Virus record (IMG/VR): IMGVR_UViG_3300007516_000010
Span: 64,417-96,941 of that record
Length of the DNA: 32,525 nt
Strand: one strand, 5' to 3'
DNA from: a virus
The number at the start of each line of letters is the position of its first letter. Positions within the stretch are counted from its first letter, which is position 1. Below, one piece after another: positions 12,262 through 30,677 of the stretch. The notes beneath the pieces were generated by a model that saw only the letters and a list, made by a program, of their open reading frames with translations, had not been told where the DNA came from and ran no database searches. A program made the translations under genes and the position numbers.

Positions 12262-12289
12262 CGTTTCTACACCCTTTGCGGGAATAAAC

Positions 12290-13144: not shown

Positions 13145-13180
13145 ATTGTCGGCATTAAGCTCAATACAAAAGGATTTTTC

Positions 13181-13546: not shown

Positions 13547-13567
13547 GCAACTCCAAGGAAACAGGCA

Positions 13568-14338: not shown

Positions 14339-14344
14339 TCCCGG

Positions 14345-14372
14345 GCGGCGACAAAATCGATTTTGTCGCCGC
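14345..14372. repeat. dispersed palindrome copy 4
   Basis: Perfect 28-bp GCGGCGACAAAATCGATTTTGTCGCCGC, 6 nt after GT6 stop. Confidence 0.95.
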
Positions 14373-14483
14373 ACCGCTTATTCGGTCTTACCTGGTGGCA
14401 GCGGGCAAAGTTTGTAGCCCTTCGGCCCGCGGGTATGGTGACTTGCTGGTAGCTGACCGGCGGTGCATCATCAGAGGCGGACA

Positions 14484-14939
14484 ATGCAAGATAAAACAAG
14501 GCTACTGAAGATGAGCGATCTTAAGCTAGCGGCCGCCATGGACGCTGAGCTGTTCGACGATTCGTGGACATCCGAGGACTTCAGCCAGTATATCGCTGAT
14601 CATACGTGCAAAATCATCGGCACCTTTCGTGACCGCAAGTTGGTGGGGTACGCCTGCGTCGCGTTTTACGGCCGCCGCATCGCCATAGACCGGCTGTGTA
14701 TTAACGACGGCGACGACGACGATCCAGCGACCGTCAAATTAATCGCCGCGATGAAGCAGATTCTTCCTGCCGGCGGTCAGGTACGCCTGGAGATCGAGGT
14801 CCAGCTGGAGGACAGTGATACGCTCGCTCTGTTCAAAGCAGACGGCTTTGTTGCGCGGCCCTGGGCGAATGGCAAGTATGTGCATCCCAGAACCGAACAG
14901 GTCAGACTTTGTTATCTTCCCGCTGTCACGCCACTTTAA
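14484..14939 (+). CDS. GNAT/RimI-like acetyltransferase-fold protein
   Basis: DLKLAAAMDAELFDDSW, LVGY, IDRLCI, LEIEV, ALFKADGF; acetyl-CoA-binding motif A looks degenerate. Confidence 0.7.
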   Translation: MQDKTRLLKMSDLKLAAAMDAELFDDSWTSEDFSQYIADHTCKIIGTFRDRKLVGYACVAFYGRRIAIDRLCINDGDDDDPATVKLIAAMKQILPAGGQVRLEIEVQLEDSDTLALFKADGFVARPWANGKYVHPRTEQVRLCYLPAVTPL

Positions 14940-14956
14940 GTAACGAGAAAGTCCAG

Positions 14957-15622
14957 ATGATTAACACAGACCCAGTTGCAACGACGAACACGACAGAACT
15001 GCCACGCACTGTTTACGTCGCCGGCCCGATGCGAGGCATCAAGTATTTCAACTTTCCAGAATTCGATGCAGCTAAAGCTAAACTCGAAGCTGCAGGGTTC
15101 AACGTCATATCGCCGGCCGATTTAGACCGAGAGGCTGGGTGCAATCCAGGCAGCTTTCATGCGGACTACGACTGGACCGACTTAGCCGCGTGCGGCTTTT
15201 TGCTTTCCGATGCTATTGACCGTGACATTGAGGCCCTCAAACGCTGCGATGCGATTTACATGCTGCGTGGTTGGGAGCGGTCCAAAGGGGCGAAAGCTGA
15301 GAAAGCGTTAGCGGAATGGATAGGGCTAGAAGTCCTCTACCAGGAATCTGAAGACATTCTCGAAGAAGCACTGCGGATCACCCGGGGCGACCGCAACAAC
15401 GATTACGGGCATCCTTTCGACGACTTCACCAAGACCGCCAAGATGTGGTCGGCGATTCTAGGTGTGACTGTTGGGCCGGAGCACGTCGCGATGTGCATGA
15501 TTTGCATCAAGCTCAGCCGGCAGTGCAACTCACCTAAGCGAGATAACCTGGTCGACGGGGCCGGCTACTTCCGTACGCTGGACCTGGTCGTGAACCACCC
15601 TGACTGGAAACCGGTCCTGTAG
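14957..15622 (+). CDS. DUF4406 (nucleoside 2-deoxyribosyltransferase-like) fused to DUF6378
   Basis: VYVAGPMRG..FNFPEF...CDAIYMLRGWERSKGAKAE, then ILEEA..ITRGDRNNDYG...KRDNLVDGAGY. Confidence 0.88.
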   Translation: MINTDPVATTNTTELPRTVYVAGPMRGIKYFNFPEFDAAKAKLEAAGFNVISPADLDREAGCNPGSFHADYDWTDLAACGFLLSDAIDRDIEALKRCDAIYMLRGWERSKGAKAEKALAEWIGLEVLYQESEDILEEALRITRGDRNNDYGHPFDDFTKTAKMWSAILGVTVGPEHVAMCMICIKLSRQCNSPKRDNLVDGAGYFRTLDLVVNHPDWKPVL

Positions 15623-15656
15623 TCTGTGTCAGTGATTCGCGTTCAATCTTTATTCT

Positions 15657-15944
15657 TTGCGGAGCGATCCGATGCGAGTACGGGATGCGGTAATTCGTGC
15701 AGACCGGGCCAGAGCCCGCTGCCAGTCAGCAGGCCGTAACAGGCCTTTCTACCGTCGACAGGCAAAGCGAGCTGAACGGCGACTGGGCCAGGCGATCATC
15801 CGGGAGTCGCTTGTCGAGCTTGACGGCGATGCGGTCCATCGCCGGATAGTGTTTAATGCGGCCGTCACCCGGCGGTCGACAATCTTGCAGAACGACTTGT
15901 GGTTGTTCATCGAATGCTTAAATCACCCCGGCGACGTGATTTAA
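15657..15944 (+). CDS. hypothetical Arg-rich protein ending at the attC-array junction
   Basis: 95-aa ORF whose stop TAA overlaps the AAC of attC-like site A. Confidence 0.45.
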   Translation: MRSDPMRVRDAVIRADRARARCQSAGRNRPFYRRQAKRAERRLGQAIIRESLVELDGDAVHRRIVFNAAVTRRSTILQNDLWLFIECLNHPGDVI

Positions 15945-16016
15945 CGTTCAAAATCACCGTGACCCGGCGGATGATTTCCAATTTCAATAAACCGTAGTCC
16001 GGGTCTGCGGTGCATT
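15939..16016 (-). mobile_element. attC-like site A (degenerate R'' end)
   Basis: 15943-16016 identical to 17677-17750; minus-strand R' reads GTTAAAT; R'' end disrupted (GCATTGTCTGC vs GCATTTTATGGTTCTGC on +). Confidence 0.75.
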
Positions 16017-16283
16017 GTCTGCTGACCAGTTGAAGCTGTCGACGCACTTCATGGTTTTGTTCTTGCCGTTTACTGGTAGCGTGTAAAGGGCATAGGTTAG
16101 TACAGTTTCAGCACCGACTTTTATCAGTTCATGGGAGTCATTGATGGTTAAAGCAACGCAGTTGACAAGCGGATTACCGCGAGGAAGCGGTAACGATTTC
16201 TTGATGCATCCTAAATCGGCTTCGATGGAGCTTATCTGCAAAGACAGCGATGGCAGTGTTTTGGGTAGTTCTGAGTTGGACAT
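15984..16283 (-). CDS. possible cassette ORF (minus)
   Basis: 99-aa ORF running into site A; overlaps a + ORF. Confidence 0.35.
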   Translation of the reverse strand: MSNSELPKTLPSLSLQISSIEADLGCIKKSLPLPRGNPLVNCVALTINDSHELIKVGAETVLTYALYTLPVNGKNKTMKCVDSFNWSADNAPQTRTTVY

Positions 16284-16431
16284 GCTTGAGTTCGATAACT
16301 TAGTTGAGTATTTAGTGCTGGCTTACGGGATATTACCGCTAGACTGCGTCAAGCGAACGTTGTTGGCTTTGGAGCGGCATGCGATGAGTCTTAATACAGG
16401 CGGCGTTTCAGTAGCAGAACGCCCGCGATAA
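16141..16431 (+). CDS. possible ORF ending inside attC-like site D
   Basis: 96-aa ORF; stop lies within the attC arm. Confidence 0.35.
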   Translation: MMVKATQLTSGLPRGSGNDFLMHPKSASMELICKDSDGSVLGSSELDMLEFDNLVEYLVLAYGILPLDCVKRTLLALERHAMSLNTGGVSVAERPR

Positions 16432-16505
16432 CCGGGCACGAAAGGTAAAATTATGAGTTCAGATAAAGATCAACAGAGTGCTCCGCGTTCATCGGATGGT
16501 TCTGC
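16414..16505 (-). mobile_element. attC-like site D
   Basis: Minus strand: GCAGAAC-CATCC-GATGAACGCGGAGCAC...GTGCCCGGTTATC-GCGGGC-GTTCTGC, 92 bp. Confidence 0.8.
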
Positions 16506-16707
16506 TCCGGGTGCGGTAGCGGGCGAGCAGCAAGCATGTACGAGCCTGCCATTTTCAGAGTGGCTAGGCGGTGAAGCCATTACGCCGGAAGAGGCATCGG
16601 ACAGAACGGGGTTACCAGTCAGCTTCTTCAACAATACATGGAGAGACGACCCGGATTACATTGCCAAGTATGTGACTCCGTACGAGAAAACGTCAGAGAC
16701 GGTTTAA
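16453..16707 (+). CDS. hypothetical protein initiating inside attC-like site D
   Basis: AAAGG RBS and ATG in the attC loop; ITPEEASDRTGLPVSFF resembles an HTH fragment. Confidence 0.55.
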   Translation: MSSDKDQQSAPRSSDGSAPGAVAGEQQACTSLPFSEWLGGEAITPEEASDRTGLPVSFFNNTWRDDPDYIAKYVTPYEKTSETV

Positions 16708-16952
16708 GTCGAGGCATCTTCAGATGGGAACATCACTATCAGCAGTCCGTCAGAGGATTGATTGATAGCTGCAGTATCGGGAATCCTGTATTCCGACACT
16801 AAAGTCGATCCTTGCGACGTTTACGCAAATAATTTGCCGTCGCGTTTGACTACTCGACAATCGTGCCAAGGGTCTGGACTGCCAGTGATATGAAGCTTGA
16901 CACTTCCAGCATTCAGCAGGTCTTCTTCCGATGTGTTACCGTGGTATTGCAT
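16704..16952 (-). pseudogene. cassette gene with premature stop
   Basis: MQYHGNTSEEDLLNAGSVKLHITGSPDPWHDCRVVKRDGKLFA*TSQGSTLVSEYRIPDTAAINQSSDGLLIVMFPSEDAST*; internal TAA at 16821-16823; ATG 18 nt after the R' box of site C. Confidence 0.55.
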
Positions 16953-16970
16953 GTGTCTTCAGTTTCAGCA

Positions 16971-17059
16971 GCAGAACGTTAACGATCAGCGGTCGACCGT
17001 CGCTGATTCTTCAATTCCAAGCGGATGATCGGTCGCTCCGTTGCGTCGCATGGTTCTGC
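16971..17059 (-). mobile_element. attC-like site C
   Basis: Minus strand: GCAGAAC-CATGC-GACGCAACGGAGCGACCG...CGGTCGACCGCTGATC-GTTAAC-GTTCTGC, 89 bp. Confidence 0.82.
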
Positions 17060-17429
17060 TCCGCGTGGAGTGGGGCCGGGGAGAATTAGAGATATGGTTG
17101 AATCTACTGAGAAATCGATTCTCGATCCGAATCCGGAAGTTCCGTACAATTGCATTGTGGGCGAACCGTTGCCAGGTGTTAGTGGGCTAGAGTGGCAGGA
17201 TGAGAGCCTTCTTGAGTCTGGTCAAACAGGCTTTTACTTAGTTTACAGCCCAAAAACTCACCAAATCCTCTTTACGCATTTAGTAGGTCCACAAGACCTA
17301 ACAGTGTTACGCGTAGGTGATCGTGACCAGGGTTATCGTCTGCTTGGACCGTTACCCAAGCCGCCGGTATATTTTTGCCCGGGAACAACCAACGGACTTG
17401 ACATCGACCCTAACTGGCACTGGGAGTAG
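17025..17429 (+). CDS. phage-type hypothetical protein; frame opens inside attC-like site C
   Basis: GFYLVY...LLGPLPKPP; alternative start ATG 17094 after GGGAG. Confidence 0.6.
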   Translation: MIGRSVASHGSAPRGVGPGRIRDMVESTEKSILDPNPEVPYNCIVGEPLPGVSGLEWQDESLLESGQTGFYLVYSPKTHQILFTHLVGPQDLTVLRVGDRDQGYRLLGPLPKPPVYFCPGTTNGLDIDPNWHWE

Positions 17430-17649
17430 CGTTATCAATGCACTGTTTCGCTTCAGCTTCCGTGTTGAAAATTAGTGTGCTTTCGACAACGACTTTCGAC
17501 CATGTATCGGACCTTCCCCAAAACATCGCAGGAATCTGTCTGTAAGTCACAGGTGACTCAATAGATCCATGCTCAATCGCTTTGCTTGGCACTGAGGTAG
17601 GATCTGACACGATTACCCATTTATTGTCTCGAAGTTTAAGCGGCTTCAT
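17410..17649 (-). CDS. cassette-encoded hypothetical protein
   Basis: ATG 17649 just downstream of site B R'; MKPLKLRDNKWVIV...FNTEAEAKQCID. Confidence 0.55.
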   Translation of the reverse strand: MKPLKLRDNKWVIVSDPTSVPSKAIEHGSIESPVTYRQIPAMFWGRSDTWSKVVVESTLIFNTEAEAKQCIDNATPSAS

Positions 17650-17672
17650 AAGTGGTTTCCCAGTCTCAGGTA

Positions 17673-17762
17673 GCAGAACGTTCAAAATCACCGTGACCCG
17701 GCGGATGATTTCCAATTTCAATAAACCGTAGTCCGGGTCTGCGGTGCATTTTATGGTTCTGC
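17673..17762 (-). mobile_element. attC-like site B
   Basis: Minus strand: GCAGAAC-CATAA-AATGCACCGCAGACCCGG...CCGGGTCACGGTGATT-TTGAAC-GTTCTGC; L'' one base longer than L', 90 bp. Confidence 0.85.
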
Positions 17763-17782
17763 TCTACGATGAGCGGCGAGAA

Positions 17783-18016
17783 TCATACGGAGTCAGTAAG
17801 ATGGCAATAAGCAGCATAAGCAGCCCGAGCATCTGCATTGGGCTTGATTTTGGTGGTGGAACACCAGGTCAAGAAACCGTCAATTGTTACGTAGGTCTTT
17901 ACGACGGAGTTAGGGTCATCGAGATTACGAAACCGCTCTTCGATGTACTCGACCCACTCATCGTATGTAAGCGTGAATTCTTCCGGGAATGCACGAACGA
18001 ACAATTTAACCACCAC
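17783..18016 (-). CDS. cassette-encoded hypothetical protein (possibly 5'-truncated)
   Basis: TYDEWVEYIEERF...VTIDGFLTWC...NADARAAYA looks protein-like; stop 20 nt before R'' of site B, the classic cassette layout. Confidence 0.6.
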   Translation of the reverse strand: MVVKLFVRAFPEEFTLTYDEWVEYIEERFRNLDDPNSVVKTYVTIDGFLTWCSTTKIKPNADARAAYAAYCHLTDSV

Positions 18017-18046
18017 AACGAGATATAACCAGGAAATGCAAAAGCA

Positions 18047-18214
18047 ATGCCCTACTGTAAGGAATGTAAAAGAGAGCTGGACTGCGAGGACACCAACGGT
18101 AGAGACCTAGAGACCATGGGCGGTCTATCTGTCGAATACTACGTGTGCGAAGAATGCAACATCCCCTACGAACTAATAGGGGACAACCTGTACAGAACAG
18201 ACGACCAATCATGA
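18047..18214 (+). CDS. small zinc-ribbon protein (55 aa, below ORF-track cutoff)
   Basis: MPYCKECKRELD...YYVCEECNIPY; AGGA upstream. Confidence 0.7.
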   Translation: MPYCKECKRELDCEDTNGRDLETMGGLSVEYYVCEECNIPYELIGDNLYRTDDQS

Positions 18215-18315
18215 GTTTCAGAGAACTAATGAAATTCGCAGCAATATTAACGGATAATCGCTCAGTATTTGCGAGCTTTCCGCTTATTGCCGTGTAACTC
18301 TTTTAGGAACCAAAC

Positions 18316-18633
18316 ATGCCGACTACGGCACACACTCAATTTCTGGGCGGAGTACCGTGCAACGTCCCCAACCGTACTGACGATGTCGTTACGGGAAGCC
18401 CGCACTGGTACGTCTCCTACAACAACTACGATCAGGCGGTCTACGGCTCAGACACCACTGCGCTTGTGTTGGGACAAGTTGAATACATTCTCATCTTAAA
18501 CGGCGACCACCGGGACGGGCTGCGGGCCTGTATCACAGTTAAAGACCTCGCCACCTCTCGCCTTAATCGTTGCCTAGCGTACGTACGCGAGCACAAAGCG
18601 GAACTTAATTTCCGCAGCAATCCGATCATCTAA
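18316..18633 (+). CDS. phage hypothetical protein
   Basis: AGGA RBS; WYVSYN..YGSDTTALV...ILNGDHR. Confidence 0.8.
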   Translation: MPTTAHTQFLGGVPCNVPNRTDDVVTGSPHWYVSYNNYDQAVYGSDTTALVLGQVEYILILNGDHRDGLRACITVKDLATSRLNRCLAYVREHKAELNFRSNPII

Positions 18634-18733
18634 AACAAAAGCGGAGCGGATTTCGTCGAATGTGCATTCGGCGGCTGAGCGTATTCGAACTGGGTATTAC
18701 CCCGATAGCTTTTAACTCTTACCAAGGAAGACC

Positions 18734-19660
18734 ATGAATTACTACCTAATCACACTTTCGTGTGAATGTCCCGGGTATACCAGCCACCACCGGTTGCAGT
18801 TCGTTATTACAGAGCATGTGACGAGCACGGCTTCTGGCTTGCTTTCCAACCTATGCGACACACTTACCGACACAAGCGTCAATCCGTATGTTGAATTGTC
18901 TTTTGTCAGACTACCTCCAACACACGTCAGAATGTTTAGCAGCTACAGCATTGATCAGCTCGAAAAAGTCACAGCCGAGATATCTGTGGCAATTATTGCC
19001 TACACCAACAGGCTGCTTCGGTCAGGCTTTACGCTTGCGGCCGCTCCGCGGCCGGAGGCATCGCCGGAGGCATCGCCAGACAAGGCAGGCAAGACGACGC
19101 TGCGGAACACGGTTTTGGCGATGCTGTTAGCCACCGAAGATAGCGATATCAATTATCAAGAAGCCGCGAGTCTTCGCACAGTTATCGGCGGTGAGCCGCT
19201 ATATCAATTTAGGCATGCTGACGGCGAGACTAGTTACGCGGCGATGCAAGACGTGCTGGAGGTCGGCAATCCGCGAAACGAAAGCGACGATGACGAAGAT
19301 GCGGGGTACATCGGCTTAGTTCCGCCCGTTGTCGGCATCGACATGTCCGGAGGGCTGGTGACTTCGGTATGGGTTGACGGTTCCCCTGAAAGCAAGTATT
19401 TCGTTAACGACTCCGACGACTGGGCGGAGGTCAACTGGGACATCATTGACTGGGACGCCATTGACTGGGACACAGAGGTAGCCGCGGCCGTCACCGATCA
19501 GGTCGAACGCGTGGTCGAATACCTGCGGGCCTGGCGAAAAGGAGAAATGAGTTCGGAATTATTGTTTTGGCTGATCGACGCGGCCCCGACCGAATTAGTT
19601 GATCTTGTTTCGCACGCGATTATCACCATCCAAAATTGCGACACGGTGTCCGATAAATAG
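18734..19660 (+). CDS. hypothetical acidic protein
   Basis: 308-aa ORF after AAGGA; repeated D/W motif VNWDIIDWDAIDWD. Confidence 0.7.
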   Translation: MNYYLITLSCECPGYTSHHRLQFVITEHVTSTASGLLSNLCDTLTDTSVNPYVELSFVRLPPTHVRMFSSYSIDQLEKVTAEISVAIIAYTNRLLRSGFTLAAAPRPEASPEASPDKAGKTTLRNTVLAMLLATEDSDINYQEAASLRTVIGGEPLYQFRHADGETSYAAMQDVLEVGNPRNESDDDEDAGYIGLVPPVVGIDMSGGLVTSVWVDGSPESKYFVNDSDDWAEVNWDIIDWDAIDWDTEVAAAVTDQVERVVEYLRAWRKGEMSSELLFWLIDAAPTELVDLVSHAIITIQNCDTVSDK

Positions 19661-19722
19661 GCGACGCTAGGGGATGCGAGGCTAAGCTGCTACTATCTGG
19701 AACAGCTCGACGACAATGCGTC

Positions 19723-19752
19723 GTCGGCGACAAAATCGATTTTGTCGGCGAC
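19723..19752. repeat. dispersed palindrome copy 5
   Basis: Core 19728-19747 perfect, arms GTCGGCGAC; at the boundary between accessory and virion/RNAP regions. Confidence 0.95.
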
Positions 19753-19821
19753 CGTACCCACGGTCGCCTGTTCGGGACAACTGCGTCCGCCTTCAATTTT
19801 TTTAGCCCCTGGAGCTCCGGC

Positions 19822-20391
19822 ATGTCTGTTGACCCCGCTCTTCTCGCAAAAGTACGCCAGGCCCTCAATAAGCAGGCGGTCGCTTCACCTGCCGACTTTG
19901 GAGGGGCTCCACCGATGCCTCCCACAACGGGGATGATGCCTCCAGGAGCCGCTCCTCCGGGCATGGACCCAGCGATGGCTGGCGGTGCTCCGCCTGTCGA
20001 TCCTGCTACCGGGCAACCGATGGACCCCGCAATGATGGACCCAGCGATGGCTGGCGGTGCTCCGCCTGTCGATCCTGCCGCGATGGAACCTGATCCGTTG
20101 TTGGAGATGATTAAGCAGATGGCCAAGGACGTGGCTCAGACCAAGGCACTGATGGCGACGGTTGTCGACCAGCTCGGCATTAAGGTTCCGACCAAGGACA
20201 TTCTTGCTAGCGGCGAAGACGCTGTCGCAGAGGCTTCGATGGGGTCGGCCAAGGCGGCTGGTTACATTGACGCGGATTCTGACGGTGAGGCGGTCGTTTT
20301 ACCGCCTGATGCAGTGGACGCCACGCAGAAGAAACTTTCGCTGGACGCTTCGTGCCAGTACGCCGCGATGGTGTTTGCTCGCAAAGGGTAG
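19822..20391 (+). CDS. Pro/Gly/Met-rich protein, putative head-associated
   Basis: GGAG RBS; MDPAMAGGAPPVDPA repeats; KQA and KAA motifs. Confidence 0.8.
   Translation: MSVDPALLAKVRQALNKQAVASPADFGGAPPMPPTTGMMPPGAAPPGMDPAMAGGAPPVDPATGQPMDPAMMDPAMAGGAPPVDPAAMEPDPLLEMIKQMAKDVAQTKALMATVVDQLGIKVPTKDILASGEDAVAEASMGSAKAAGYIDADSDGEAVVLPPDAVDATQKKLSLDASCQYAAMVFARKG
19963..20078 (+). repeat. 44-bp intragenic direct repeat (19963-20006, 20035-20078)
   Basis: ATGGACCCAGCGATGGCTGGCGGTGCTCCGCCTGTCGATCCTGC twice, 72 bp apart. Confidence 0.9.
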
Positions 20392-20393
20392 TC

Positions 20394-20639
20394 GTGATTC
20401 CTAATCGTCCTACGTTATCCGCTACTGCTCATTCACTTGGGGCGACCGGCCCCGAAGTCTTGCGGGGCGATGTCTTGGTGGTTCGTAACACCTTCAACGT
20501 GCCGATCGCGATCTTCGTGATGTTGGGACCGCAGCTTCACCAGATGTACTCGATCTGCCATGATCCGCAGGAATTCCAGTCGGCTTTGCGTCAGCATGGA
20601 ATTGAATCCGGCGCAATCGTTGAACCCATGAAAATCTAG
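20394..20639 (+). CDS. hypothetical protein
   Basis: In-frame GTG 20394 fills the gap before the RNAP gene. Confidence 0.65.
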   Translation: MIPNRPTLSATAHSLGATGPEVLRGDVLVVRNTFNVPIAIFVMLGPQLHQMYSICHDPQEFQSALRQHGIESGAIVEPMKI

Positions 20640-20649
20640 AGGAACACTG

Positions 20650-22545
20650 ATGTCTGATCTTACCATTGGCCAGCACATGCTGTCGGCTATGCTTCCGCCG
20701 GACGCTTATCGTCCTGGCCAGGTGATCGACAAGAAAAGCATCAGCCAGATCTTTGGCGACTTAGCGGCCAATCATGCGGACGATTACAAAGAGATATCCC
20801 ACCAGGCGATGTTGTTCGGGCGGGACTCGGCGAAGATGAGCGGCGGCGGGGCGTTCTCGATCCGCCACATGGCGACTCCCAAGCGGGCCCAGGCCAGGCG
20901 AGACGTCATTCGGCAAACGATTAGCGACATATTGCTGACAACTCCCGAAGCGGACCGCGACCAAGCGATTATCGACGTACTGGCCAAGGCTCAGTCGACG
21001 GACAAGGACGAGACGGTTGCCGAGGCAGAGGAAGAAGGTAATCCGTTTGCGACCATGCTCAAAGGAGCCGGCCGTGGAAACCCAGCTAGTATCGCTAGGC
21101 TGATCTCCAGCGACTTGATGTACGCTGACGCGTCTGGCCGCCCAATTGCTATCCCCGTACTTAACTCGTACAGCCGCGGGCTAACCCCGAGCGAATACGC
21201 CGCGTCGACGTTCGGTGTACGCAAGGGACTGGTCGACGCCAAGGTAGGAGTCGGCACGGGTGGCTACGCCGCTAAGCTGTTGCTTGCCGCGGCTCATCGC
21301 ATGGTTGTCACTGACAACGATGCTCCGCCAGAGCTGGAAATGCTTTCCGCCGGTCGTGGTTTACCTGTCGACGTCACCGACACTGACAACATCGGAGCTT
21401 TGCTGGCGGCCGACACGGGGCCGTACCCGCGTAACACTACGATCACGCCAAAGATTCTCGCCCACCTGCAGAAACTCAAGCACGACGAGATCCTTGTTCG
21501 CAGTCCACTAACGAGCGTCGATCCCGCCGGCGGTGTCTACGCCAGGGATGTCGGTTTCCGCGAACAGAACCGTTTACCAGCGATCGGCGAGTCGGTCGGG
21601 GTTACCGCTGCTGGGGCAATCTCAGAACCGGTCACGCAATCCCTGCTTAGCTCCAAGCACAAAGGCGGCCTCGCCGAGGCCCAGTCCGACGAGTTGACCG
21701 GGTTCGCTCTCATCGACCGGCTGATCAACACGCCCAAGGAGTTCCGCGAGGCGGGGACGCATACGGAAGTCGACGGCAAGGTCGAATCGATTAAGCCCGC
21801 TGAGCAGGGCGGCTCGTACGTCACCGTCGCCGGCCAGCAGTACTATGCTTCGCCCAACGCCAAAGTCACCGTCAACTTAGGCGACGACGTCGAAGCGGGC
21901 GACATGCTCACCGGCGGCACACCCAACCCGCGGATGGTAATTCGGCACAAGGGGCTAGGTGAAGGTGGGCGGCAGTTGGTCAAGTCGTTACACAAGGCGA
22001 TCGGCAAAGACGCTCACCGCAGGAACATCGAGTTGATTGTGCGTGGTTTGGTCGACCGAGTACGCGTGACTGAGGAGTTCGACGACTATGCACCTGAAGA
22101 CGTTGTCCCGTACAGCGAGGTGATGAGCAGGTGGCAACCGCGAGAGGGTTCCAGCGTGGATGGGCTGCACCGAATCCGCGGCAAGTACCTGGAGCAGCCT
22201 GTGCTGCATTATTCCGTTGGCACGCGAATTACGCCGTCGGTAACCAAGATGCTACAAAAGCACAACGTTCAGCAGATCACGACGCATAACTCGCCGCCGC
22301 CATTTGAGCCTGAAACGGTTCGGGCGACCGACGTGCTGCGAACCGATCAGGACTGGATGACGCGGCAGGTGGGAACAGGACTCCAGCGTGGATTACTTGA
22401 ATCGGCACACCGCGGACGAATTAGCGACGAGGATTCGACGAGTTTTGTGCCCGCGAGGGCTCACGCAGTAAACTTTGGGAGCGTCGGCAAAGTCCAGTTG
22501 TCGCCTCCCAAGCCATCCTCATTGCCCAACTTAGGCTATCAATAA
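20650..22545 (+). CDS. DNA-directed RNA polymerase beta' subunit, C-terminal half (phage-encoded, split)
   Basis: IDKKSISQ; NPFATMLKGAGRG; GLTPSEYAASTFGVRKGLVDAKVGVGTGGYAAKLL (bridge helix); VRSPLT; GESVGVTAAGAISEPVTQSLLSSKHKGG (trigger loop); HRRNIELIVR; no NADFDGD. Confidence 0.92.
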   Translation: MSDLTIGQHMLSAMLPPDAYRPGQVIDKKSISQIFGDLAANHADDYKEISHQAMLFGRDSAKMSGGGAFSIRHMATPKRAQARRDVIRQTISDILLTTPEADRDQAIIDVLAKAQSTDKDETVAEAEEEGNPFATMLKGAGRGNPASIARLISSDLMYADASGRPIAIPVLNSYSRGLTPSEYAASTFGVRKGLVDAKVGVGTGGYAAKLLLAAAHRMVVTDNDAPPELEMLSAGRGLPVDVTDTDNIGALLAADTGPYPRNTTITPKILAHLQKLKHDEILVRSPLTSVDPAGGVYARDVGFREQNRLPAIGESVGVTAAGAISEPVTQSLLSSKHKGGLAEAQSDELTGFALIDRLINTPKEFREAGTHTEVDGKVESIKPAEQGGSYVTVAGQQYYASPNAKVTVNLGDDVEAGDMLTGGTPNPRMVIRHKGLGEGGRQLVKSLHKAIGKDAHRRNIELIVRGLVDRVRVTEEFDDYAPEDVVPYSEVMSRWQPREGSSVDGLHRIRGKYLEQPVLHYSVGTRITPSVTKMLQKHNVQQITTHNSPPPFEPETVRATDVLRTDQDWMTRQVGTGLQRGLLESAHRGRISDEDSTSFVPARAHAVNFGSVGKVQLSPPKPSSLPNLGYQ

Positions 22546-22578: not shown

Positions 22579-24942
22579 ATGTCGCTGCCTTTGTCCACCC
22601 AGGCAAGTCTTAACCTTGCCCAAGATGCCTACAAGAAAGCATCTGTTCGGTTTCTCTCTGAGCCGCAGCGATGGGAAACAGCTCGTCAGCTGATCAAGAC
22701 TGCTGACTTCGGTGAGAACAGCAACCCACAATTTGAGAAGGCGTTCGGCGCGATCGCTTTCACTTACCTCCAAGAGAAAGCCCCTGGGCTGCTACCGTAC
22801 GTAGTCGGCTTTCAGCTGATTGACCGCTCGGAGCAGGGCCGCAAAGCGATCGGGGCGTTTACCGCCAAGCTCGGTAACCGTGTTATCGACATTCCGATGT
22901 TCTTCATCAACGGAGAACTCAAGGGCCACCAGTTTATGCGGCTGCGAAAGCCCGAACTGTTTATCCCGTTACGGGAAGCCTTCCTGGACTTCTTGTTCAG
23001 TAAGCTGCCGCAGGATCTCGGGGACGCCTCGGGTTCGTTGTCGGTACCTAGTCCGGTGCGAGCGACGCCCAACATTCAGCCATTCTCCGGCAGCCGCTTC
23101 AACAAGAACAGCGAAGATATCGACCATGCACATCCCTGGGCGATCGAAGCCGGGACGTTCGAGGCTTATGCGGACATGCGGCTGTCGTTGCGGACGCTCA
23201 AAGTAGGTAGCGAACTCAAGCATGGCCGACCGCTTCCAGGCGTCAACTTGCTAGAGATCATTGGCGAGTCCGAAGAGCTGCTCAAGACGGCAGCTAGGAT
23301 GGCCGATCAGTATCCTGAATTCGCTGCTGGCATGTCGCGTCGTCACGGCGATGACTGGATGCATAAAGCTGCTTCGGCGATTGTCGCGTCACGTGTCGCA
23401 CCGCTGCCGGCGATTTCGCTTCCTTTAGCCCCTGGGGCTCCGCGAATCGCCGTGGGAGCGAAGCTAGCTATCGATCGGCTGTTCTACCGCGACAAGGTTG
23501 CCACGATGGCGACACCGGAGCGTAAAGAGGCGATGCGAGCAGAGATCGATCGGTTCGGCTTCTTTGTGGATGACCACCGTTCGGCGGACAAGATTGCGGC
23601 AGCTTACGAGATCGAAGACCAGAAGCTGCGAATTGAGCCACCTAACTTGCCGGGCGTGTACCGCGTAGCGTTTGCAGGCGATGAGGTCAAAGAAGCGATC
23701 ATTTTCCCCAGTCAGTACCGCATTGACGACGACAAAGACCTGATCATTGAGACGGGTAAGAAGCGGTTCGCCTTTGGTGAGCGAAACAGTTACATCGTCA
23801 GCCACATCGACAGCACCGAAGCGAACCGCGAAAGCAAGCTGGATAAACTGCTGACCGGCAAGAAGCGACCCAGCGAGAACGAAGCATTCCTTGTGTTGCT
23901 ACCGCAGCACCGTATCGCTGGGCCCTTTGTCGTCAGCGAGAAGCTCGGCAAGGATCGTTACCGGGTATCGTCCTTGTGCGACTGCGGGTCGATGCGAATC
24001 AACGAGATTGAGTTTCGTGATACACAGCGGCTTGGCGGGCATATCGTCGACGGTATTCTGATTGTCCCCAAGACAGCCAAAGTGTTATCGCTAGGTTCGC
24101 TCAAAGCGGATGAAGACGGCTATGTAGGCTACGCCGAGCGGGAAAACCTGCATGTCGAGTTGTTGTCCAGCAGTCGTATCGAGCTTGGCAACTTGAGCAA
24201 GTACGCCAATCTTGAGCTGCTTGTGAAGAGCGGTGGTCAGGTTGATCTCAACGGCAAGCGGATGAAGCTATCGCACGCACGCAAGGTGCTACTGCAGCAG
24301 TGCGGTATGGCTAAGGATGCGGTAGACGCTCTTTTAGAGTCTCCGCGACCGATGCGTAGGTTCATCGTCGCCAAGCTCGGTAGCGAGCCATCGCTAGCAT
24401 TTGAGAAATTTGCCGCTCCGTATTTCACCCCTGCGGTTGATTTTCCTCAAGAGGACCAGGGCTATTCCAGCGAGAGCGGTCGCTACACGATCGAGAACCC
24501 GCAGACGCAGTATAGCTCGGCCGAGCCCGAACAACGGTTCCAGCCGACGCCGGTAAACGAAGATGTCCCCGGCCAGATGCCAGGCACGGTTAGCGGGACG
24601 AACGGCGGTTCAAACTCCGGCATGGTTTCGCAGAACGAGACCGCTTCGCTGTTTGACACTTCTGGGCTGGTTTCGCTCGTCCGTAACAGCCGTATCGACA
24701 GCCAGATTCGCAAGACGACTCAGTCGCTTCTGCGTGCGATCGACGAGCTAGGTACGGCTCTGTTTGTGTTCTACGCCCATAACGACGAATTCGAGTCGAT
24801 GTATGGCGAAGAAGCGATGGAGGATCTGGAATCGGCCATGATCAGTACTTTCGAGGGCGGTGGCGACCTGTTCATCACGTTGTCTCGCCGCTCCGCCGAT
24901 CCACACCCTGAACTCGACATTGCGGACCTTCCGCACCAATAA
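22579..24942 (+). CDS. large hypothetical protein, putative virion/head-associated
   Basis: 787 aa; recurring K-x-[A/G/S] motifs; adjacent to RNAP subunit. Confidence 0.8.
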   Translation: MSLPLSTQASLNLAQDAYKKASVRFLSEPQRWETARQLIKTADFGENSNPQFEKAFGAIAFTYLQEKAPGLLPYVVGFQLIDRSEQGRKAIGAFTAKLGNRVIDIPMFFINGELKGHQFMRLRKPELFIPLREAFLDFLFSKLPQDLGDASGSLSVPSPVRATPNIQPFSGSRFNKNSEDIDHAHPWAIEAGTFEAYADMRLSLRTLKVGSELKHGRPLPGVNLLEIIGESEELLKTAARMADQYPEFAAGMSRRHGDDWMHKAASAIVASRVAPLPAISLPLAPGAPRIAVGAKLAIDRLFYRDKVATMATPERKEAMRAEIDRFGFFVDDHRSADKIAAAYEIEDQKLRIEPPNLPGVYRVAFAGDEVKEAIIFPSQYRIDDDKDLIIETGKKRFAFGERNSYIVSHIDSTEANRESKLDKLLTGKKRPSENEAFLVLLPQHRIAGPFVVSEKLGKDRYRVSSLCDCGSMRINEIEFRDTQRLGGHIVDGILIVPKTAKVLSLGSLKADEDGYVGYAERENLHVELLSSSRIELGNLSKYANLELLVKSGGQVDLNGKRMKLSHARKVLLQQCGMAKDAVDALLESPRPMRRFIVAKLGSEPSLAFEKFAAPYFTPAVDFPQEDQGYSSESGRYTIENPQTQYSSAEPEQRFQPTPVNEDVPGQMPGTVSGTNGGSNSGMVSQNETASLFDTSGLVSLVRNSRIDSQIRKTTQSLLRAIDELGTALFVFYAHNDEFESMYGEEAMEDLESAMISTFEGGGDLFITLSRRSADPHPELDIADLPHQ

Positions 24943-24950: not shown

Positions 24951-25316
24951 ATGGCTTTTAGCTCTGCAACCTACGTTCCAGGCGACGCCTGGACCACGCC
25001 AGACTTCCTCGGCAGGGCGTTAACGCCGCCCAAGCTGGTTGTCGCCGCGGCGGCTGCCAACGCCACGACGCCTCCAAGTTACTTCGAGTACCGGCAGCGT
25101 GCCGGTAACAACGATCCTTTTGTCTCCATTTCAGTTTCGGCTGCAGGCGGCTTCTCGGTCGTTTTGGAGCGATCCTTTGACGCCGGGGCGACTTGGGGGC
25201 TGTTAGCGACTTACGCCGCTAACACCGAGACCACACTGGAGCCAGGCGGCCTATTTATGTTACGGTTACGAGTCGTCTCGGGCACTGGCGTCTACTTAGC
25301 CCTGCGGCAAGGCTAA
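24951..25316 (+). CDS. small beta-rich putative structural protein
   Basis: AAGGA RBS; VVLERSFDAGATW (Asp-box-like). Confidence 0.75.
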   Translation: MAFSSATYVPGDAWTTPDFLGRALTPPKLVVAAAAANATTPPSYFEYRQRAGNNDPFVSISVSAAGGFSVVLERSFDAGATWGLLATYAANTETTLEPGGLFMLRLRVVSGTGVYLALRQG

Positions 25317-25375
25317 GTTCTTTGTCGCTTACAGCTGTCAGCGACTAATGGCGAAAAATTCTAGGGACTTACGAC

Positions 25376-26320
25376 ATGAAGACCGACACTCGCGGGGCGG
25401 TCGAACTGCCCATCTCCCGCGGTTTCGAGCGTATAGCCGAGGTACGGTTAGCCACGGTTCACTTCAATCCATGCGGGTATAAACGCTTGCGGGATACCTA
25501 CTACGAGTGGTTACCAACGCTCGGTCCGCTTGCTCCTGCGGTGAAGTGCTACGAGTTGGTGTTTGACGACGACCAACCAGAGATTGAGGGATCGACAGTG
25601 CTCCGCGGTACCAGGCGAGAACACCTGATGTTCCAAAAAGAGCCGCTGGTCAACATCGCTCTGCGAAACTGCGGGCCGGAGGTTAAGTACTTCGCTTGGT
25701 TGGACCACGACTTCGTCAACGCTGATCCTGACTGGCTGGCCAAAGGCGTCGCTAAAATTGACGGCGGCGCGCTTGCGGTGCAGTTGCTCTCTCGTGCGGT
25801 CTGGCTCACCCGTGACCGTCGTCCGAGTGATATAGCCGTCGGCGCTGTTAAACGGTGGAAGACATCGGCTGATTGCAACGGCAATCCAGGTGCACTGTGG
25901 TTAGCGTCGCGAACGTATCTGGACATGATCGGTGGACTTAGCTGCGACAACATCGTAGGCGGCGGCGATCAGAACTGGATCGATGCCGCGGTAGGACGTT
26001 ACGGCTACCATCTGCAGCGGTACAGTGAGCCACTGAGGCAGACGATGCGTGAGCGGATTCGCACCGCGGCAGGGTTACGCGGCGGGCGAACTGCAGACTA
26101 CTTAGAGACGGACGCATACCATCTCTGGCACGGCGAGTTCAGCGACCGAAAGTACAACGAACGTAACGCGATTCTTCGGGATTATGATCTCCGACCAGGC
26201 CGCGACTTGCGAATCGACCTGCAAGGTCTACAGAGCTGGAGCGGACAGGAACATCCAGGATTGCGGCAGGCAGTCGCGGAATACTTTGAGCAGCGGCGGG
26301 AAGACGGTGATGAGACATAG
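25376..26320 (+). CDS. glycosyltransferase-like (GT-A fold) protein
   Basis: FNPCGY, FQKEPLVNIA, YFAWLDHD (DxD), VGGGD, YHLWHG. Confidence 0.7.
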   Translation: MKTDTRGAVELPISRGFERIAEVRLATVHFNPCGYKRLRDTYYEWLPTLGPLAPAVKCYELVFDDDQPEIEGSTVLRGTRREHLMFQKEPLVNIALRNCGPEVKYFAWLDHDFVNADPDWLAKGVAKIDGGALAVQLLSRAVWLTRDRRPSDIAVGAVKRWKTSADCNGNPGALWLASRTYLDMIGGLSCDNIVGGGDQNWIDAAVGRYGYHLQRYSEPLRQTMRERIRTAAGLRGGRTADYLETDAYHLWHGEFSDRKYNERNAILRDYDLRPGRDLRIDLQGLQSWSGQEHPGLRQAVAEYFEQRREDGDET

Positions 26321-26325
26321 CGTGC

Positions 26326-26351
26326 CGGCGACAAAATCGATTTTGTCGCCG
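26326..26351. repeat. dispersed palindrome copy 6
   Basis: Perfect 26-bp CGGCGACAAAATCGATTTTGTCGCCG, 5 nt after stop 26320. Confidence 0.95.
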
Positions 26352-26451
26352 CACCTTCCGCAAGGATGGCAATGAACAAGTACGTACGCAGTATTTATGG
26401 CGGGACAATTGCGGCGGTGGTTGAAGACCCGCCAACTGAAACGGAGCAACC

Positions 26452-27309
26452 ATGAGCAATATTCACATCGGTACCCCTGGACGAACTTACTACGCCAAAG
26501 AAACCGGCAGTAGCGTTTCGCCGTGGTCGACCGGCGTGGTGCCTTACACCGAGTTGCCGCTAGCCGGTGTATTTGCTGCGGCTACGGATAATGGCGAAAC
26601 GTACGTGATTTACGACCAGCTCACCGGCAGCCCGCTGGCAACGGACAGCATTGACGGGACTGTCGGCGTGGTAAGCCCGACGGCCGCGGAGATACAGGCG
26701 ATCGTGGAAGGCGTTATCGGCAACAGCGGCGTCGGCGAATTCTTCTTAACAGTTCAGGTCAACAGTTCCGTTGCCGGGAACCCAGGGCTGCATAACGTGC
26801 GAGTGGCTATTCTCGGTTCTTCCACCCGCCAGTTCACCGACGTCATGGGCAACGTTGTTTTTCGCGTTGAAGCGGGTGACTACACACTCAGCTTTGTTGC
26901 TCCCCCACAGTACGCAGCCGTCGCTGACTTGCCCGTGACCAGCGTCACCGCGGACCGTGAGGTCGTCGTCATACTGACGCCTTCGTTCATTCCGTTACCG
27001 GATGACCCGCTGCTGTGCAATTGTCTGCTCATCGTGCTGGATCAGCTGGGTTCACCGATCGCTGGTGCGACGATATCGCCGGTGATGGTTGGGCAAGGAA
27101 CCGCGGACGGCGGTGCGTTTGTGTTCAACGAGCCCGTCACGTTTACTACCGACGTAGATGGACGTGTGTTCATGCAGCTGCACCGCAAGCGTACCTACGA
27201 CTTCTTCGTCAGCGTTACGGACCTCGGAAGTTTACAGGTGGTAAAACGAATCCCGGATTTGCCGACGCATTTAATCACTATTGGCGGACAAGTCGCCGGA
27301 GCCTGCTAG
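26452..27309 (+). CDS. putative virion protein with carboxypeptidase-regulatory-like/Ig-like beta-sandwich domains
   Basis: TDVMGNVVFRVEAGDYTL and PIAGATI...TTDVDGRV repeats. Confidence 0.7.
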   Translation: MSNIHIGTPGRTYYAKETGSSVSPWSTGVVPYTELPLAGVFAAATDNGETYVIYDQLTGSPLATDSIDGTVGVVSPTAAEIQAIVEGVIGNSGVGEFFLTVQVNSSVAGNPGLHNVRVAILGSSTRQFTDVMGNVVFRVEAGDYTLSFVAPPQYAAVADLPVTSVTADREVVVILTPSFIPLPDDPLLCNCLLIVLDQLGSPIAGATISPVMVGQGTADGGAFVFNEPVTFTTDVDGRVFMQLHRKRTYDFFVSVTDLGSLQVVKRIPDLPTHLITIGGQVAGAC

Positions 27310-27316
27310 GCATATC

Positions 27317-27350
27317 GTGTCGCCGACAAAATCGATTTTGTCGGCGACAC
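27317..27350. repeat. dispersed palindrome copy 7
   Basis: Perfect 34-bp GTGTCGCCGACAAAATCGATTTTGTCGGCGACAC, 7 nt after stop 27309. Confidence 0.95.
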
Positions 27351-27473
27351 CTCCCGCAAGCGTCGCAGATTAGTACCGCTTGATGGCTTCAGGTAGAGTT
27401 TGGACGTACGTCTTTCATTGGTCTGGACGTTTTTGGGTTTCGCAATGCAGTGGGCCGATCACGGGGTCAAACA

Positions 27474-27734
27474 ATGATGGCACTAAGTCCGGGTTATTTC
27501 GCCCGAATCAAAATCGTACTCTCTCAGCTGCTCAATGTAGTTTTCTGCAATGGCGATCCTGACGAGATGCTATCGGCCAGGGCGTATCGCATGCAGCACG
27601 TTAGTCGTCGCTGGATGGTTGCGAGGCAGGTCTTTGACAAGTTGTTCTTCTGGAACACGGAACACTGTTACGAGTCTTACCTATGGGAGAAAAGCCGCAA
27701 AGACATCCACAGCGATTACTATCCGCAGCTGTGA
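27474..27734 (+). CDS. phage hypothetical protein (GDPDE-x-LS family)
   Basis: LSQLLNV..GDPDEMLSARAYR...DKLFFW..EHC. Confidence 0.75.
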   Translation: MMALSPGYFARIKIVLSQLLNVVFCNGDPDEMLSARAYRMQHVSRRWMVARQVFDKLFFWNTEHCYESYLWEKSRKDIHSDYYPQL

Positions 27735-27861
27735 CGGCGGTCGATCCGGTTAACCAGACCGACGACGGCGAACAAGGATTTACCAAACCCGCTGGCCTCA
27801 CTTTTTGTAGTCACACATACCCCGATCACTTTCACCGCTTCATTCACGATAGGTCCAATTC

Positions 27862-28266
27862 ATGCCGTACTTCATTTCCGACGTCGTTAAAGACACCGCG
27901 TTAACGCACATCAAGACGAACGTAACCAGGTTGGTACTGACTGTGGGCGAGCCCACCACCTTTGCCAACGCCAACACCAACAATGGTACTGGCTCTGGCC
28001 AGAAATGCGCCGAGGTGACCTTAATTGCCGCCGACCTAACTCTGGGCGACGGACCGACCGATGGTCGCAAAGTTGAGTGCGCCGCTAAGAACGCTGTCCC
28101 GGTAATAGCCAACGGCACTGTCGATCACTGGGCTTGGCTTAACGTGAGCGGCAGTGCGATCATCGCTTACGGTCCTTTGAGCCCGAGCTTAGCTGTGACC
28201 ACGTCCGGTACCGTCAACATTCCCGTTCACTCGCACATTTACAGAGACGCAACGGCGATCTCTTAA
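27862..28266 (+). CDS. putative tail-associated structural protein
   Basis: Thr/Gly-rich; GTVDHWAW...IIAYGPL..SLAVTTSGTVNIP. Confidence 0.75.
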   Translation: MPYFISDVVKDTALTHIKTNVTRLVLTVGEPTTFANANTNNGTGSGQKCAEVTLIAADLTLGDGPTDGRKVECAAKNAVPVIANGTVDHWAWLNVSGSAIIAYGPLSPSLAVTTSGTVNIPVHSHIYRDATAIS

Positions 28267-28331: not shown

Positions 28332-28616
28332 ATGACAATCTCATACGTCGCGAAAATCGAACCGATCACCGGCGTACTGAGAGTTTACGAATCGGACCAA
28401 GCAACCGACCAAGACGAATACCTTTTCGCGGCAACGGTGGTTTGGCTGAACGACAAGACGATTGAATTAAAGGGCGTGACAAGTGCCGGACTGCCATTGA
28501 TCGACGGCATTAAAGCACTAAGAGCCGAAGCCAGGAAACTAGGGATCGAAACAATATGTTGGGAACGTAGGCAGCCTGGAAAGCCGAGTAAGATGGTCTC
28601 GATTCGGGTGAAGTGA
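28332..28616 (+). CDS. hypothetical protein
   Basis: 94-aa ORF after GGAG in the repeat. Confidence 0.75.
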   Translation: MTISYVAKIEPITGVLRVYESDQATDQDEYLFAATVVWLNDKTIELKGVTSAGLPLIDGIKALRAEARKLGIETICWERRQPGKPSKMVSIRVK

Positions 28617-29146
28617 TGGAACCTACACTTGAAGAAAAGTTTGACATGGTGGAAGGGCTGATCATCAAATCGTCACGAATGGTCCGCACGAACACGATGG
28701 AAGCCGAAGACGTGGCACAACTGCTACGGATGAAACTAGTAAAAGCGGAACGTGCTTTTACGTGGCATGGTGAACCTCATGTCAAATGGCAATGGCTTAG
28801 TTTTGTTAAGTCGGTGATTCGTTTAGGACTGATGGAAATACGAGAAACAATTTATCGCACGGGACGCGGAAAGTTAGCAGAAGGGTTTCACCAAGAGCCT
28901 GAGCGAAACATGCTCGGTGAAACGCTGACAATTTACGACAACGAATACAAATCAATCGACTGGGAAGATTTGAAAGACAGAGCGAAAGACAATCCGGTAG
29001 CTTTGGCAAATCTGTTGTTTTTCGAAGGCAAGTCGTTTCAGGAAATCGCTGATATGTTCGGCAAGAAACCTAATACAATACGTCCCATGACGTGGGGCAA
29101 ATACAAGCGACAAGCAATCGCTGACATAGAGCGGTACATGAACTGA
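28613..29146 (+). CDS. ECF-type sigma-70-like factor
   Basis: Region 2-like EAEDVAQ...WLSFVKSVIR; region 4 HTH LLFFEGKSFQEIADMFGKKPNTIR; 177 aa. Confidence 0.72.
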   Translation: MMEPTLEEKFDMVEGLIIKSSRMVRTNTMEAEDVAQLLRMKLVKAERAFTWHGEPHVKWQWLSFVKSVIRLGLMEIRETIYRTGRGKLAEGFHQEPERNMLGETLTIYDNEYKSIDWEDLKDRAKDNPVALANLLFFEGKSFQEIADMFGKKPNTIRPMTWGKYKRQAIADIERYMN

Positions 29147-29441: not shown

Positions 29442-29723
29442 TGGCTGATGTAAAAATTGCATACGGCACAGCGGTTGATGCAACCATCACGCTGGCATCG
29501 CTGGACACGCTTAGCATGCGGGCATGGCTACCGCGTGGCTGACTGGTGGATTGTGGACGAGACGTATCAACCAGCGGGCCGATTGATTGCACGATACGAA
29601 GCGGGGCGAGTGCAAGAGTTTACCTCGCAAACGATTGAAACGACTGAGACAAAAGTCGATCCCGAAATGACGGACAGAAGCAAATTGCCGCAGGACTTGC
29701 GGCGGAGTTATATGATCAAATGA
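29441..29723 (+). pseudogene. chimeric remnant: 5' fragment of a structural gene joined to the 3' part of another gene
   Basis: ATG 29441 gives MADVKIAYGTAVDATITLASLDT, stopping at 29542; a different frame carries YRVADWW...ETKVDPEMTDRSKLPQDLRRSYMIK without a good start. Confidence 0.55.
29675..29713 (+). repeat. 39-bp direct repeat copy 2
   Basis: CAGAAGCAAATTGCCGCAGGACTTGCGGCGGAGTTATAT. Confidence 0.9.
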
Positions 29724-30528: not shown

Positions 30529-30677
30529 TCGTGGATCGAAATGAAATGTTGCTTCAGGTAACGCTGGAGCTGATAAGAAAAAGCGGGGTCCGCGAATGGG
30601 ACTCTGAATTAGTGCGAATAGACCTTGGTCTAGCCGCCGTTGAAATTGTTGAAATTTTACTAGGTGAGTTTAACGCT

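Follow-up and report, generated by a model that had tools for sequence, protein, structure and literature searches.

A phage RNA polymerase beta' C-terminal half lacking zinc sites and cysteines, its fused beta::beta'-N partner, and its probable packaging in the virion

We analyzed a 32,525-nucleotide (nt) stretch of viral DNA (the window), which comprises bases 64417-96941 of the linear viral contig IMGVR_UViG_3300007516_000010 (96,941 bp; CheckV completeness, 49%) and in which, as in the contig as a whole, nearly all genes lie on the + strand. The gene at window positions 20650-22545 encodes the C-terminal half of beta' (beta'-C) of the phage's only multisubunit RNA polymerase (RNAP), and its product contributes the bridge helix, trigger loop, and downstream clamp to this enzyme. 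Homology, fold, the presence of a partner gene, purifying selection, conservation throughout a phage clade (here, the zinc-free clade), and the absence of both beta' zinc sites and of every cysteine can be regarded as practically certain. Taken together, our data are probably best explained by a two-chain phage RNAP that is packaged in the virion and injected into the host. The gene and its translation signal are as follows.

20650-22545, + strand: beta'-C gene (P0001), 631 amino acids (aa), with the bridge helix at about aa 180-214, the trigger loop at aa 316-359, the former second zinc site, and the C-terminal clamp/jaw.
20639-20643, + strand: ribosome-binding site GAGGA, 6 nt 5' of the ATG of beta'-C, read directly from the sequence.

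An earlier note on this DNA had described the protein as beta'-like from the IDKK region through the bridge helix and the trigger loop, with Gln and His kept, to the C-terminal clamp, and profile, structure-database, and model searches all agree with that description. More specifically, the profile search proposed in the note yielded a match to Pfam RNA_pol_Rpb1_5 at 54.6 bits (cut-off, 28.5), and bacterial beta' chains in the PDB were matched with an E value of 2e-30 (query residues 100-478 aligned with residues 698-1089 of 8x6f_D), the alignment to Streptomyces beta' chains beginning as early as query residue 5. Likewise, an unnamed PHROG family of proteins of ~1200 residues matched beta'-C at profile positions 677-1098. 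Identity to any bacterial beta' is only ~20-27%. In the AlphaFold2 model, for which 29 relatives were aligned (mean predicted local distance difference test score [pLDDT], 78.9), a long bridge helix spans residues 180-214, and two trigger helices flank a disordered tip within residues 316-359. Foldseek matched this model over its full length to many beta' chains (E 3e-25; TMq 0.53-0.61), and its fold corresponds to the part of beta' that starts at region F and runs through the C-terminal clamp. The trigger loop reads EPVTQSLLSSKH, compared with EPGTQLTMRTFH in bacteria: Q929 and H936 are kept (as Q330 and H337, respectively, in the alignment), whereas M932, R933, and F935 are changed to L, S, and K (L-S-S-K versus the bacterial M-R-T-F), and the Lys at the F935 position is invariant in the zinc-free clade. 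No NADFDGD motif was found in beta'-C.

The window contains neither a beta nor a beta'-N gene; both sit upstream of it on the same contig, joined in one reading frame that was recovered by a whole-contig search with Pfam Rpb1_2 and Rpb2_6.

Contig 51055-56592 (L007:11055-16592): beta::beta'-N gene (P0005), one open frame of 1845 aa.
Contig 53479-54543 (L007:13479-14543): intein in beta, 355 aa, LAGLIDADG type, inside the catalytic GDK...GRxGNKG motif (GDKL/C...GN/SGRQGNKGV, slashes marking the junctions).

Thus, the earlier note was correct that no rpoB or beta'-N gene adjoins beta'-C, and its term "stand-alone" describes the position of the gene, but not its function, as the partner frame lies 28 kb upstream of beta'-C and 7.8 kb upstream of the window start. 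The 1845-aa open reading frame (ORF) carries the Pfam domains Rpb2_3, Rpb2_6, Rpb1_1, Rpb1_2, and LAGLIDADG, and represents a whole beta that continues as the N-terminal half of beta', complete with the metal (Mg)-binding motif GADYDGD. The last two residues of the intein are Gly-Asn, where His-Asn would be usual, and relatives without it have GDKLSGRYGDKGV at the insertion site. Its removal by splicing leaves 1490 aa, giving a two-chain enzyme of 2121 aa in total. A single RNAP set per genome was found on this contig, in the complete relative G001, and in five complete relatives.

Because the best match of the beta'-N part is a cyanobacterial gamma subunit (E 2e-46) and residue 24 of beta'-C aligns with residue 13 of cyanobacterial beta', the break in beta' lies close to the position common to cyanobacteria and phiKZ-type phages (PMC7598289). 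The split beta' proposed in the earlier note is therefore borne out, and the partner subunits that it asked for are present. We also modeled the complex between beta'-N (residues 1310-1845) and beta'-C (residues 1-460), as the note had suggested, and obtained an ipSAE score of 0.78 (0.00 for the best of three controls); 58 of 80 solved complexes and 2 of 110 mismatched pairs attain this mark. Since bacterial RNAP structures have already been solved, this score may reflect likeness to them instead of binding. Contact agreement between runs was at least 93% and partner pLDDT at least 83, and the beta'-N tail is predicted to pack against residues 3-67 of beta'-C.

The distance between the two genes bears on whether beta'-C might act without the phage's beta::beta'-N, for instance by joining or poisoning the host RNAP. 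The 28-kb separation would fit such a role, and it appears to be alike in the closest relatives (71% identity), in which the fused gene is not found within 7-10 kb upstream of beta'-C. In most relatives, however, the fused gene ends only ~1 kb upstream of beta'-C (1.7 kb in G001). Moreover, the lack of cysteines is common to both chains, in the predicted complex the C-terminal tail of beta'-N meets the N terminus of beta'-C, as the two ends of a split chain should (with the same caveat of likeness to solved RNAPs), and beta'-C resembles host-type beta' too little for the two to be readily exchanged. Action without beta::beta'-N is thus very improbable.

Markov et al. reportedly showed in 1999 that E. 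coli beta' needs its second zinc site in order to fold and assemble. We aligned this site in beta'-C, Salmonella RpoC, three other phage RNAP lineages, and two metagenomic sister lineages. As the earlier note had stated, all four ligand positions are substituted: E. coli C814, C888, C895, and C898 correspond to A225, S289, Y297, and D300 in beta'-C. The four cysteines are kept in bacteria, Carin-5, RP13, Arash, D69, L113, and L115, and are lost only in the clade of beta'-C. Within that clade, position 225 is variable, position 289 is S/T/G, position 297 is Y or F, and D300 is invariant, giving the motif GGV[YF][AS][RK]D. The side chains of Tyr/Phe297 and the invariant Asp300 in this motif would, on the packaged reading set out below, stabilize the fold that zinc secures in other beta' proteins. 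The loss extends further than the note had claimed, as the N-terminal zinc ribbon (C70, C72, C85, C88) is also deleted in beta'-N, where GGLFDPRLFG is followed by DG and then by TRFAAIELP; P0005, its clade relatives, Arash, and D69 all lack these ~32 aa. Lane & Darst, quoted in PMC7618050, described the N-terminal zinc domain as common to all multisubunit RNA polymerases.

The whole spliced enzyme is, furthermore, free of cysteine: beta'-C has none, the 1490-aa extein has none, and all nine cysteines of the 1845-aa ORF fall inside the intein. Given a mean cysteine content of 1.3% in the proteome of the contig, the probability of finding none in 2121 residues is ~1e-12 if residues are treated as independent. 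The same composition was seen in 94 of the 95 intein-free beta'-C homologues among the top 119 database matches, and in 66 of 80 beta'-C copies on viral contigs, some of the remainder being over-extended at the start or intein-bearing. Consistently, ~55 fused partners of 1456-1500 aa are cysteine-free, whereas the cysteine-bearing partners are 1800-2900 aa long and contain inteins. Of the 83 G001 proteins with at least 250 aa, only 5 lack cysteine, namely, both RNAP chains, a 424-aa protein encoded directly upstream of the capsid gene, a 261-aa protein, and a 1174-aa protein for which no family match was found.

L129:15236-18760 (G001 135236-138760): gene for the 1174-aa cysteine-free protein of G001, between the tail sheath and baseplate wedge genes, the usual position of a tape-measure gene.

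Our contig encodes three other cysteine-free proteins (555, 335, and 297 aa). For two of these, a G001 homologue was found that does contain cysteines, and we make no claim for this group.

Homologues of beta'-C are numerous, with at least 571 in protein databases, nearly all of 620-650 aa, and at least 203 contigs in IMG/VR, belonging to phages with genomes of 190-235 kb, that carry them in the same layout and with the same length and motifs. Five of these contigs are 100% complete genomes (205-235 kb), one of them with terminal repeats. The phage origin claimed in the earlier note is thus well founded, both in the viral contig itself and in these related ones. The ratio of nonsynonymous to synonymous substitution rates (dN/dS) of beta'-C is 0.063 (617 codons; measured against the nearest relative, with 92% aa identity over exteins). 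A maximum-likelihood tree (quick search; 26 rows; three bacterial outgroups and no cyanobacterial sequence; the two longest phage branches unreliable) placed beta'-C within a clade of 17 zinc-free sequences (Shimodaira-Hasegawa-like approximate likelihood ratio test [SH-aLRT], 99). L113/L115 and then Arash/D69 are successive sisters of this clade, all lie outside the bacterial sequences, and the phage clade uniting the three groups has an SH-aLRT of 98. A phmmer search supports the common descent of beta'-C with Arash Gp216 (E 3.6e-43). Loss of the second zinc site maps to one branch of this tree, at the base of the zinc-free clade; it would have occurred once, at a time when the fusion and the deletion of the first ribbon were already in place, because Arash and D69 have the fusion and the ribbon deletion yet keep the four cysteines.

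These data leave hardly any room for a recently captured, decaying piece of a bacterial rpoC, whose cysteine losses would be mere degeneration. Seen within the window alone, half a gene with a broken zinc site and no catalytic motif could suggest such a relic. The notion is already refuted, however, by (i) the dN/dS of 0.063; (ii) the low identity to any bacterial beta'; (iii) the hundreds of homologues and the viral contigs with equal length and motifs; (iv) the conserved replacement residues (Y/F297 and invariant D300); (v) the presence of the partner gene; and (vi) the position of beta'-C in a phage clade and not, as judged with the three bacterial sequences, nested within bacteria. Since the partner is present, selection is purifying, and the protein falls in the phage clade, we conclude that beta'-C is neither a lone nor a decaying fragment. 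The observation made in the earlier note is confirmed, and its interpretation is supported, with packaging as a probable inference.

Variants of the two chains were also found within the family. At least 10 relatives (among them P0007, P0010, P0011, P0017, P0019, P0020, and P0040) carry an intein of ~150-400 aa in the trigger loop, exactly before S334 (TQSLL/C.../SSKH), so that its +1 residue is the Ser at the R933 position (window codon 21649-21651). This intein is absent from beta'-C of our contig and present in a relative with 92%-identical exteins. In L026, L031, L032, L034, L043, and L084, beta'-C is lengthened to 1060-1453 aa by Pro/Ala/Ser/Thr-rich C-terminal tails and is still cysteine-free; that these long forms are fusions to the downstream protein P0002 was ruled out, as the extensions are of low complexity and have no similarity to P0002. 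L026, L067, and L091, a minority of the relatives, encode beta (~1040-1067 aa) and beta'-N (~582-598 aa) in two ORFs, with the break at the joint seen here, so that not every member of the clade has the fusion.

A virion-packaged, injected RNAP is, in our judgment, the likely role of the two chains, as suggested by virion proteomics of Arash, by gene order, and by a cysteine-free make-up resembling that of proteins known to be injected. According to the Arash report (PMC10585845), the RNAP chain Gp206 was the protein most often detected in virions by mass spectrometry (3516 spectra), the second chain, Gp216, gave 1210 spectra, and Gp218 was detected as well. Gp218 is similar to the product of the gene following beta'-C in G001 (E 2.6e-8), which in turn is similar to P0002 (E 4e-49), the protein encoded immediately downstream of beta'-C in the window.

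22579-24942, + strand: P0002, conserved downstream neighbor, 787 aa, homologue of Arash Gp218.

The order beta'-C, Gp218/P0002-like gene, Gp222-like gene, and major capsid protein gene is common to Arash and G001; our contig stops short of the capsid gene. As regards composition, the N4 virion RNAP (vRNAP) has no cysteine in 3500 aa (N4 replication proteins, 1.1-1.4%), and in T7 both gp15 (747 aa) and gp16 (1318 aa) have none and gp14 has one, compared with 12 in T7 RNAP. A full-text literature search yielded no report of cysteine-free ejected phage virion proteins.

Several observations weigh against packaging. The Arash virion preparation contained 116 proteins, including ribonucleotide reductases and primase, and its authors allow for carry-over of abundant enzymes (PMC10585845); moreover, the proteomic evidence for presence in virions comes from Arash, which lies outside the zinc-free clade. 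The virion RNAP of phiKZ, which is known to be injected, is merely poorer in cysteine than the non-virion enzyme (0.60%, 17 cysteines, versus 1.16%), so packaging alone does not require a complete lack. The earlier note had considered packaging possible in view of the neighboring genes; it remains plausible from the Arash proteomics, gene order, and cysteine-free likeness, but the neighbors themselves lend little, being mostly without annotation, and the 28 kb upstream holds nucleotide-metabolism rather than virion genes. A single RNAP per genome would also have to serve late transcription, unless the host enzyme does. Finally, sigma profile searches of the contig and five complete relatives identified no promoter-specificity subunit with confidence: Sigma70_r2 had no match in the contig, Sigma70_r4 matches in the five complete relatives were sporadic (above the cut-off in two), and the window offers a single weak candidate.

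28613-29146, + strand: weak sigma region-4-like helix-turn-helix protein, 177 aa, a candidate specificity factor only (phrog_1740, E 5.5e-4; Sigma70_r4_2, E 0.0016, below the cut-off).

Accordingly, we weighed the alternative that beta'-C is a working subunit of an unpackaged phage RNAP, made after infection for middle and late transcription. In that case, the lack of cysteines and zinc would have a different origin: for example, it might confer tolerance of oxidative or thiol-directed stress, reflect a scarcity of zinc, or protect the enzyme from a phage or host factor attacking the zinc sites of the host polymerase. Detection in virions outside the zinc-free clade only, the 17 cysteines of the phiKZ vRNAP, and the position of beta'-C after a nucleotide-metabolism block would all suit an unpackaged enzyme, as would the AR9 non-virion RNAP, which also lacks the N-terminal zinc domain (PMC7618050), so that loss of this domain is not confined to packaged enzymes. 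Against it stand the ranking of the Arash homologues among the most abundant virion proteins (PMC10585845), a gene order that runs from beta'-C into the head genes, and the total absence of cysteine in very long proteins, which is a trait of the injected N4 vRNAP and T7 gp15/gp16 and not of the non-virion enzymes of these phages. On balance, an unpackaged enzyme appears unlikely.

Under the packaged, injected reading, both RNAP chains would be packed in the capsid and would enter the host through the tail together with the DNA, and the injected enzyme would start phage transcription without the host polymerase. The zinc sites and cysteines would have been removed because a protein stored in oxidizing surroundings and threaded unfolded through a narrow channel could carry no metal clusters and could not afford the risk of disulfides. 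It is quite possible, though we advance this tentatively, that a bacterial-type RNAP of ~240 kDa has in this way been rebuilt without zinc, cysteine, or the alpha/omega assembly platform. Its two chains would then be kept in the capsid, pass through the tail, and fold again and assemble in the host without help.

If packaging is true, a bacterial-type enzyme joins the small set of injected polymerases; the lack of cysteine in a long protein could, if the explanation holds, serve as a marker, readable from sequence alone, of the injected protein set of tailed phages, and the Y/F297-D300 motif would show side-chain contacts replacing a structural zinc site of beta'. A large natural clade lacking both zinc sites and every cysteine under strong purifying selection is in any case a ready-made experiment on the purpose of these sites, for which the sisters that keep the second site (Arash, D69, and L113/L115) provide a matched comparison, and the two-chain enzyme is a minimal system for structural work.

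The further features around beta'-C are listed below; the two palindromes, lineage-specific and with the core CGACAAAATCGATTTTGTCG, enclose a six-gene block that holds beta'-C.

19723-19752: upstream copy of the palindrome, bounding the block.
19822-20391, + strand: P0004, Pro/Ala/Met-rich protein, 189 aa, whose G001 homologue directly follows the beta::beta'-N gene.
20395-20639, + strand: small ORF upstream of beta'-C, ~81 aa from the GTG at 20395; a 79-aa gene is called there in the closest relatives.
26326-26351: downstream copy of the palindrome, closing the block.

The ~27.6-kb stretch between the two RNAP genes (contig 56685-84237, covering window 1-19821 and the sequence upstream) encodes a coiled-coil protein, a metallophosphoesterase, a thymidylate synthase, a glycosyltransferase, and a nucleoside 2-deoxyribosyltransferase-like protein. 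In G001 the P0004-like gene directly adjoins the fused gene, whereas on our contig P0004 precedes beta'-C instead; therefore, the RNAP block was split by a rearrangement that inserted the nucleotide-metabolism genes, including that for thymidylate synthase. Searches of PHROGs and Pfam gave no match for P0002, P0003, P0004, the window ORFs at 24951-28266 and 29720-31208, or the contig ORFs at 39021, 47791, and 50140. An ESM Atlas search with P0002 returned low-sharing matches only (TM <=0.25) and was not used. The ORFs downstream of beta'-C at window positions 31208-32029 and 26452-27309 gave a match to a ConA-like lectin domain (Laminin_G_3, E 1e-10) and weak matches to Ig-like/CarboxypepD_reg domains, which virion decoration or fiber proteins typically contain. 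Between the portal gene and the RNAP block lie rIIB-like and rIIA-like genes (L122:8246-11821; contig 44246-47821). In the closest relatives (71% identity), a gene for a reverse transcriptase (RVT_1) of 649 aa lies ~4 kb upstream of beta'-C (L103:951-2900 and L104:3708-5657); none was noticed in this window.

Phage contigs of this family are also deposited inside bacterial and archaeal metagenome-assembled genomes (MAGs), e.g., L113 (RXKB01000001.1; 226,528 bp), L110, L107, and L118, in taxa that include Dependentiae, Pacearchaeota, Gemmataceae, and Saccharibacteria. All 16 matches in genome collections were phage-sized or short contigs in MAGs of unrelated taxa, which looks like mis-binning, and no host was drawn from them.

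Among known systems, the closest is that of Arash (Gp206 and Gp216; OQ632216) and the Vibrio phages D69, D148, and D181, which have the same two-chain layout, with a beta::beta'-N of 1525-1527 aa and a beta'-C of 606-609 aa. These phages share with the RNAP described here the deleted N-terminal zinc ribbon, the xADYDGD motif, and a Gp218-like gene downstream. They differ from it in that their beta'-C is only 25-27% identical to ours. In addition, beta'-C of Arash and D69 has the four second-site cysteines, replaced in the zinc-free clade, as its sole cysteines, and the RNAP genes of these two phages are 0.6-4.8 kb apart beside the portal gene rather than 28 kb apart; in Arash, only the small gp205 separates the Gp206 gene from the portal gene, and the Gp216 gene lies 4.8 kb further on. 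In the Arash paper the two proteins are designated beta and beta', and its accessible part mentions neither the fusion nor the zinc sites nor cysteine content (PMC10585845).

The RNAPs of the phiKZ/AR9 type are likewise multisubunit phage enzymes that have neither alpha nor omega, and their beta' is interrupted after the double-psi beta-barrel, at the same place as in cyanobacteria (PMC7598289); one of the phiKZ sets is injected, and the AR9 non-virion enzyme is missing the N-terminal zinc domain, as is ours (PMC7618050). In contrast, their beta is made of two or three chains and each genome has two enzyme sets, whereas here beta is whole, fused to beta'-N, and present in one set; phiKZ subunits retain cysteines, and ours has none. 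A tblastn search at E 1e-5 gave no match in the phiKZ group. In cyanobacteria and plastids, beta' is split at a nearly identical point (gamma/RpoC1 and beta'/RpoC2), but the cyanobacterial beta' has ~1320 aa with a large trigger-loop insertion, compared with 631 aa here, without the insertion or the zinc sites and with the partner fused to beta. N4 vRNAP and T7 gp15/gp16 are, like the present chains, long cysteine-free proteins in proteomes of ~1-2% cysteine; this likeness concerns a possible mode of action and not homology, as N4 vRNAP is a single-subunit T7-like polymerase, T7 gp15/gp16 are not polymerases, and their folds are unrelated to that of this RNAP.

The mReC set published in 2020 consists, like the present family, of uncultured tailed phages whose bacterial-type beta and beta' branch outside the cellular clades. 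Its entries, as far as the accessible data go, have a separate beta (~1000-1150 aa) and an unsplit beta' (~900-1400 aa), like Carin-5, an architecture unlike the one described here, and the paper mentions no fusion, split, zinc, cysteine, or virion. Membership of our contig in that set was considered and set aside, as none of the 12 sample identifiers checked yielded a contig of the zinc-free clade and the entries differ in architecture. The enzyme to which beta'-C belongs is thus a phage multisubunit RNAP of the Arash type.

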